The translations under genes and the position numbers were made by a program. A stretch of 9,558 bases of DNA from a virus. Lineage: Duplodnaviria > Heunggongvirae > Uroviricota > Caudoviricetes. The notes beneath the pieces are model-generated. The model was not told the origin of the DNA. It did not search any database and saw only the letters and a program-made list of their open reading frames with translations. Position 1 is the first letter of the stretch; every line of letters starts with the position of its first letter. Location: IMG/VR virus record IMGVR_UViG_2541047429_000025. One strand, given 5' to 3'. This document shows, one piece after another, positions 1,511 to 2,049 of this stretch.

Positions 1511-2049
1511 CTATTGTTGAACTGGATTAAACCAGTAATTCTCTATTGCTCTTATTGTTACCATCGGATGATTGCCGGGGGTTATTTTAAGTTCGGGAGG
1601 AAAAGGCTCTCCATCAGCAGCCATCATTGAGTATGTGAAATCCGCCGACGCAGTCCCTTTCATGATAATTCCGAATTTTTCAAGTAATGAGAGCAGTTCC
1701 GGTAATCCTGTGTCATCTGAATAACTTTCCTCATAGAAAGAAGCGATTGCCGCAGGAGATGACAGTTCTCGCTCTGCAATTTTTTTGTAGTTTTCCAGAA
1801 TTCTTTTTTTGAATACTTTTCCTCGACATGAAAACCCATCACCGAGGCAATCCGCTTTGCAGTTTCTTCAGTATTCTGGTTGTTTGTTACCGAAACAGAG
1901 TACAATCCGGTAAACGCATCGCGCACATTACGAGCCATATTATCAATGTATTTCTTCGTTGCAGATTCTAATTCAACTTCGTTCAGACGTTGGTGAAGTG
2001 CATGTGCTGCAATTTCCTGGATTTCTTTTAGTAAATCTTTAAATTCCAT
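1511..2049 (-). pseudogene. early-left-operon gene interrupted by a -1 frame change at an A7 run (about 179 codons if joined); frameshift pseudogene or programmed frameshift
   Basis: ORF 1660..2049 (129 aa) reads well up to ...VMGFHVEEKYSKK. After the A run (minus-strand A at 1810..1804) the -1 frame carries a much more protein-like sequence (RILENYKKIAERELSSPAAIASFYEESYSDDTGLPELLSLLEKFGIIMKGTASADFTYSMMAADGEPFPPELK...) up to TAG at 1513..1511. The zero-frame tail after the run is low quality. GGAG 7 nt upstream of ATG 2049. Confidence 0.5.

Follow-up and report, generated by a model that had tools for sequence, protein, structure and literature searches.

A frame change in a dicB-type operon gene of E. 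coli prophages: a probable inherited homopolymer contraction

A minus-strand gene in the virus record IMGVR_UViG_2541047429_000025 changes reading frame close to a run of A residues, and the question is whether the two frames are joined by programmed recoding or were separated by mutation. Here, we analysed the whole 9,558-nt stretch of DNA in which the gene lies (the window). The original prediction placed the change at a slippery A_AAA_AAA heptamer, took a GAGG upstream of it as a possible Shine–Dalgarno (SD)-like stimulator of a programmed -1 frameshift, and considered a homopolymer indel to be the simpler explanation. Our comparison of alleles favours, with a probability of roughly 0.87, an inherited homopolymer-contraction frameshift that leaves a 129-aa truncated product and is not programmed.

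Reading frames and A runs in the window

The gene reads ...EEKYSKK in the zero frame and continues from there for 47 codons and a TGA, which confirms the long zero-frame tail described originally. Starting ahead of the first A run (run 1), the -1 frame stays open as far as a TAG, and its translation agrees with the predicted product of about 179 aa. The in-phase heptamer and the GAGG 10 nt upstream of it were likewise found in the sequence as described. A second in-phase A7 run (run 2), which had been overlooked, is placed 24 nt downstream of run 1. Runs of A7 are not enriched in the window, where eight were observed against 5.55 +/- 2.96 expected (at least eight in 46 of 200 shuffles). The zero-frame stop overlaps the start of a 50-aa ORF, annotated as a separate protein in some assemblies (P0140, 659 contigs). 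Termination followed by re-initiation at this ATGA could yield a C-terminal fragment; the region upstream of the 50-aa ORF start holds no clear SD.

E. coli O157:H7 chromosomes match the region around the frame change at 100% identity, and in strain PV15-279 the matching region lies within a lambdoid prophage adjoining yccA. The local minus-strand order, ydfA, ydfB, the frameshifted gene, DicF and dicB, is that of a dicB-type early operon. DicF lies 3' of the gene and 5' of dicB, as it does in the dicB operon of the K-12 Qin prophage. By analogy with Qin, such an operon would be repressed in lysogens. A scan for promoters and terminators around the gene gave counts indistinguishable from the shuffled expectation. 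None of the complete E. coli genomes matched the window from end to end, the best match reaching 87% coverage at 99.6% identity. The prophage lineage, as its sequences compare, is a mosaic that is decaying differently from host to host.

Table 1. Positions of the frameshifted gene, its A runs and other features in the window.
Feature	Position	Strand	Remark
Hok/Gef-family ORF	9159..9371	plus	part of a hok/sok toxin-antitoxin locus, 9047-9371
sok RNA	9047..9221	plus	RF01794, 113 bits
DUF977 gene	7714..8109		whole in the window; split by ISEc8 in strain PV15-279
RelE/ParE toxin and RelB antitoxin genes	2623-3101	minus	between a repressor-like HTH gene and ydfA (RefSeq, identical region)
ydfA (DUF1391)	2346..2191	minus	
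ydfB	2189..2061	minus	broken by an IS3-family element in strain E105
Start ATG	2049..2047	minus	GGAG 7 nt upstream
Zero-frame ORF, WP_000394511.1	2049..1660	minus	129 aa; ancestral residues 1-90, 39-aa out-of-frame tail and TGA (1662..1660); in RefSeq an ordinary gene for a hypothetical protein, with no pseudogene flag
Codon 15	2005-2007	minus	Ala, Glu or Val among otherwise identical 129-aa proteins (P0152, P0153, P0158)
GAGG	1824..1821	minus	10 nt 5' of run 1 and 34 nt 5' of the break at run 2
Run 1, in-phase A7, TC[A AAA AAA]	1810..1804	minus	originally proposed shift site
Run 2, in-phase A7, AC[A AAA AAA]TTG	1786..1780	minus	true frame break
-1 frame remnant	1511..1779	minus	ancestral residues 91-179 and TAG (1513..1511), still open
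50-aa ORF	1663..1511	minus	begins at ancestral Met130
ATGA overlap	1660..1663	minus	zero-frame TGA overlaps the ATG of ancestral Met130
ATG (Met) at ancestral position 163	1562..1564	minus	Arg (AGG) in all nine intact homologues aligned
DicF antisense sRNA	951..900	minus	Rfam RF00039, 76.9 bits, full length
dicB	714..526	minus	

Intact homologues, recoding signals and the site of the break

Searching with the fused 179-aa sequence, we found nine intact single-ORF homologues in E. coli and Salmonella (P0001-P0009; 177-186 aa, 61-91% identity, 98-100% coverage), all of them colinear with both frame segments. Across the site, most read ...EEKYSKKEFWKT(T/A)KKIAERE..., the more distant ones EFWK(I/M)AK(R/A)IAE, and the most divergent one EFRRIAKRIAE. 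Between the two runs, the window's eight zero-frame codons (EFWKTTKK) agree with the intact homologues, while the same stretch read in the -1 frame gives RILENYKK, which agrees with none. A shift at run 2 would give the trans-frame peptide TTKKIAER... and a shift at run 1 KKRILENYKK, as against TTKKLQSENCHLLR; the full-length trans-frame product would contain ...TTKKIAERELSS... Because the inter-run peptide of the intact homologues is the zero-frame one, the break is placed at run 2 and not at run 1. The frame change of the original prediction is thus real, but its site lies 24 nt further downstream than proposed.

Alignment of the homologue DNA allowed the run lengths to be compared among alleles. 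Both runs are A7 in the frameshifted alleles of the window, L011 (O121:H19) and L018 (metagenome), while the intact alleles L002-L006 and L017 (metagenome) combine the same A7 run 1 with an A8 run 2. Two other intact alleles, L007 and L013 (strain A19), carry TCG and A6 at run 1 and A8 at run 2, and in L008 and L009, also intact, run 1 is A7 and run 2 is absent (GCC AAA CGC ATC and GCC AAA AGA ATC). The remaining alleles are frameshifted, with A7 and A6 in L010 (GCA_008122345.1), A6 and no run 2 in L014 (Logan SRR9326098), and A6 and A7 in L015 (E. coli TA280). The metagenome scan yielded one A8 allele (L017) and one A7 allele (L018), and a scan of species-representative genomes gave no match. 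When one A was added in silico to run 2 of the window, a 179-aa ORF resulted; P0126, encoded in a draft genome of O111:H11, has the same sequence.

By this comparison, the lesion is the loss of one A from an A8 tract, at run 2. The original prediction had named homologues with one extra A and a single uninterrupted frame as evidence against programming, and the alignment of orthologues that it proposed turned up such A8 single-ORF alleles. Its simpler explanation, a homopolymer indel, is therefore supported, except that the extra A is in run 2 and not in the run that had been flagged. Parsimony makes A8 the ancestral state, since A8 is found in three allele backgrounds, with A7 essentially confined to a single one, and since the outgroup genes are intact; the change would have gone from A8 to A7.

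A programmed -1 frameshift at run 1, stimulated by the GAGG, would produce a 179-aa protein with RILENYKK in place of EFWKTTKK, and the in-phase heptamer, the 10-nt spacing of the GAGG and a -1 frame open from run 1 onwards all fit such a site. However, L002-L006, L008 and L009 have the same A7 run 1 and the same GAGG, are intact, and read the run in the zero frame, where a shift would lead to a short dead-end product. Homologues conserve the zero-frame peptide between the runs, and the intact L007 and L013 have lost both the uninterrupted run 1 and the GAGG (AAAGAGAAA). The GAGG belongs to a conserved pair of Glu codons (GAG GAA), is 34 nt away from the break and has no association with it. 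The stretch after run 1 shows no significant structure (fold z -0.28), and even moderate IS911 stimulators bring this heptamer to only about 0.8% (PMC4066793). We consider programming at run 1 to be highly improbable.

For recoding at the true break, we compared run 2 with what known sites contain. A slippery heptamer X_XXY_YYZ in the zero-frame phase is present at both A7 runs. Within 17 nt upstream of run 2, where the sequence is GAATTCTGGAAAACTAC, there is no SD-like element. Folding of the downstream RNA without pseudoknots, in four windows against dinucleotide shuffles, gave z values of +0.22 to -0.72 and no significant structure. Diverged homologues do not preserve the combination of heptamer and 0/-1 two-ORF layout; at nucleotide identities from 94% down to about 75% in the 3' part, all of them consist of a single ORF, with A8 or no run at the break. 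In E. coli, A_AAA_AAA shifts at 0.405% without a stimulator, at 0.82% with the IS911 stimulators and at 24.8% with the IS3 pseudoknot, and the motif is used by IS600 (cluster A_AAA_AAA_1); the gene is absent from the conserved candidate clusters of the same frameshift survey (PMC4066793). A programmed -1 frameshift is thus disfavoured as a whole, the two-frame layout being limited to one near-clonal allele whose true site has neither an SD-like element nor significant downstream structure.

Transcriptional slippage was considered in the same way. Productive slippage has been described for runs of 9 nt, occasionally 8 (PMC1088944), and E. coli RNA polymerase makes single-A insertions in A/T runs at a frequency that rises exponentially with run length (PMC5574713). 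A conserved ORF layout with an A/T run of about 9 nt, and at least 8, is not found here; the run is 7 nt long and unconserved. Since insertions scale exponentially with run length and productive runs are of 8-9 nt, the A7 tract should give only a trace of product by this route. Some full-length or near-full-length protein is physically possible, because both A7 runs have the phase required for -1 slippage and no stop codon interrupts the -1 frame over either of them. Judged by the published values, full-length protein would amount at most to a trace from unselected slippage, about 0.4% per A7 run.

Distribution, variation and decay of the frameshifted allele

Queries of 86-88 nt that differed in having an A6, A7 or A8 run were compared with 5,426 complete E. 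coli genomes. All three queries matched the same 386 genomes, of which 384 matched the A7 query at 99% or more and none the A8 or A6 query at that level. A 296-nt segment that spans run 2 and the whole -1 remnant is at least 99% identical in 386 of 387 complete genomes; among 60 sampled rows, identity was 100% in all but two, one of which has a single SNP. The remaining carrier, strain A19 from a vampire bat, has 93.9% identity and an intact A8 gene. Carriers of the segment include O157:H7, O121:H19 and O103 strains as well as pig and fish isolates. Three inspected carrier loci (O157:H7, O121:H19 and a fish isolate) share one prophage gene order, with the common backbone integrase, DUF4224, exonuclease, DUF1482, dicB ... 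ydfB, ydfA, relBE, repressor, YdaT and ECs1072.

The frameshifted allele is by far the commonest form in databases. In a larger protein collection, the contig counts of three 129-aa forms are at least 1000, at least 1000 and 287 (at least 2,287 together), and the exact WP_000394511.1 sequence accounts for at least 1000. The window's own background also includes A8 forms (P0126 and P0130), found on one or two contigs each, which may represent reversion, survival of the ancestral form or a homopolymer miscall; assemblies with A8 include CVM9534 and SE18018. The rare A6 form in that background (L010) could be a real variant or a sequencing error. From these comparisons, the distribution looks like one mutation inherited by descent in one successful, heavily sampled prophage lineage.

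Two readings of the tract-length data can be weighed at this point. One is a sequencing or assembly artefact, in which the window would truly have A8 and its A7 would be a homopolymer miscall. Homopolymer length errors are common on some sequencing platforms. Many laboratories have, however, obtained the identical A7, which stands in 384 complete genomes and also in one metagenome contig; this leaves the artefact an almost negligible probability. The other is a phase-variable contingency locus, in which frequent changes of tract length would toggle the C-terminal domain. The A6, A7 and A8 forms of run 2 and the A6 and A7 forms of run 1 across assemblies are in line with it, but tract-length variation among closely related isolates was not seen in the complete genomes (384 of 386 have A7, and none A8 or A6), the A8 forms stand in other sequence backgrounds, and the variants in the same background, on one or two contigs each, may be sequencing errors. 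Its chance appears very slim.

Independent indel alleles at the two runs (L010, L014 and L015) indicate that both are hot spots either for indels or for sequencing errors. The gene is also a recombinant mosaic, whose 5' and 3' halves are discordant in their identity to different homologues; identity over the 5' and 3' halves is 88% and 78% for L008, and 78% and 94% for L007. The A-rich KKEFWK...KK region lies near the mosaic junction. Besides the codon 15 alleles, the other 129-aa variants are mostly in residues 7-15, and the out-of-frame tail has one variant only.

The -1 remnant has neither a stop codon nor a further indel and is 94-98.5% identical to the intact A8 alleles. The replacement of Arg163 by Met is the sole possible sign of decay in it, a weak one as read from the alignment, and the change could predate the frameshift. 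At a diversity this low, with carriers about 100% identical, recent spread and purifying selection on the remnant are indistinguishable.

The open remnant bears on whether recoding at run 2 could be selected at a low level, by ribosomal -1 slippage or transcriptional A insertion, so as to set a ratio of 129-aa to 179-aa protein. The run is an in-phase A_AAA_AAA, the -1 frame behind it is intact, A7 dominates in 384 of 386 complete genomes, and single-A insertions by RNA polymerase do occur in A/T runs (PMC5574713). Yet the layout is confined to one near-clonal allele, with close relatives having A8 single ORFs and distant ones having no run, the conserved Arg163 is replaced, and the dominance of A7 is explained by heavy sampling of STEC strains with one prophage lineage. 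There is no stimulator, and productive transcriptional slippage involves runs of 9 nt, occasionally 8, which are longer than A7 (PMC1088944). Taken together, selected recoding at run 2 seems distinctly improbable.

Against the reading as an inherited mutation, it can be argued that the open remnant and the dominance of the frameshifted form, at least 2,287 contigs versus a handful of intact ones in the same background, could reflect selection for two products. The tandem in-phase A7 pair would then act as a weak recoding device that makes mostly the 129-aa protein, a small fixed share of the 179-aa protein and maybe the 50-aa fragment through re-initiation at the ATGA. We regard a selected recoding role as very unlikely, and we attach equally little weight to the tandem device. 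The inherited frameshift is, as we infer, of no use in regulated recoding.

Proposed history, encoded protein and comparison with known systems

For the inherited homopolymer contraction, the following history can be proposed. The ancestral prophage gene would have encoded a 179-aa protein across the whole interval from the start ATG to the -1 frame TAG. In a sub-clade, codons 88-91 would have become (A/G)CA AAA AAA ATT, creating the A8 tract, and in the ancestor of the window allele one A would have been lost, most probably by replication slippage, to leave A7. Translation would now depart from the ancestral frame after Lys90 and run through 39 unrelated codons to the stop, so that the 129-aa product would retain the N-terminal helical module and residues 91-179 would be stranded in the -1 frame. 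The mutant allele presumably spread with one prophage lineage into O157:H7, O121, O103 and other E. coli.

Searches of Pfam, NCBIfam and PADLOC gave nothing significant for the protein, and a profile search against PDB sequences gave no match. PHROGs returned only families of unknown function, and only over residues 1-92. When 1.84 billion representative proteins were searched with a profile, the ~60-residue N-terminal module proved widespread, either in stand-alone proteins of 50-130 aa or fused to unrelated C-termini, and the C-terminal part was restricted to this small gene family. Sequenced phages matched by tblastn only over the N-terminal module, at less than 60% identity, and none of these phage records has the C-terminal part. 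For P0001, an intact homologue, AlphaFold2 with a nine-sequence alignment gave a poor model (mean pLDDT 49.9), in which the first ~50 residues are helical and average about 70 pLDDT. Homology to K-12 YdfC, which has the same operon position, was rejected (hhalign probability 0.1%), and nothing was found in the literature on Ybl81 or WP_000394511.

Because it retains the widespread N-terminal module, the truncated product may still function, and the gene is more safely called a "truncated allele" than a "dead gene". A further possibility is that the truncation itself was adaptive, in which case being rid of the C-terminal domain would have been an advantage and the N-terminal module by itself would be the useful product. 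This would suit a module that is common by itself or with unrelated C-termini, and an allele that is very widespread. Hitch-hiking with a successful prophage accounts for the frequency equally well, however, and the 39-aa out-of-frame tail is arbitrary sequence; we consider adaptive truncation unlikely.

The inherited-frameshift reading has a practical value for annotation. WP_000394511.1, present in thousands of STEC assemblies, is the frameshift-truncated form of a 179-aa prophage protein, and the separately annotated downstream 50-aa ORF is the stranded C-terminus of that protein. It also carries a caution for recoding searches that work from sequence only, in that a slippery heptamer with a well-spaced SD-like motif can adjoin a plain indel and yet be irrelevant to it. 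Further biological or mechanistic implications would arise only if the function of the protein becomes known.

Among known systems, the locus resembles the -1 sites of dnaX and of IS3-family elements (IS911, IS600 and IS3) in its in-phase A_AAA_AAA and in the GAGG 10 nt upstream of one run, and, as in the IS3-family elements, the -1 product would exceed the zero-frame product in length. Unlike at those sites, the layout is unconserved, there is no stimulator or hairpin at the point of divergence, and the homologues encode the fused protein directly. With genes that use transcriptional slippage, such as Thermus dnaX (A9) and IS elements (A9 or A8), it has in common a poly(A) tract at the junction of overlapping frames and the fact that the full protein would be regained if the mRNA acquired one extra A; however, its tract is 7 nt long compared with 9 (occasionally 8) in these genes (PMC1088944), and neither run nor ORF layout is conserved. 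It differs from homopolymer-slippage pseudogenes in that the N-terminal module is still in the translated frame and may work, and in that RefSeq has not flagged it as a pseudogene. It shares with them a one-base poly(A) difference from intact orthologues, a 3' part surviving in another frame, a change limited to a closely related clade, and further indel alleles at the same tracts.
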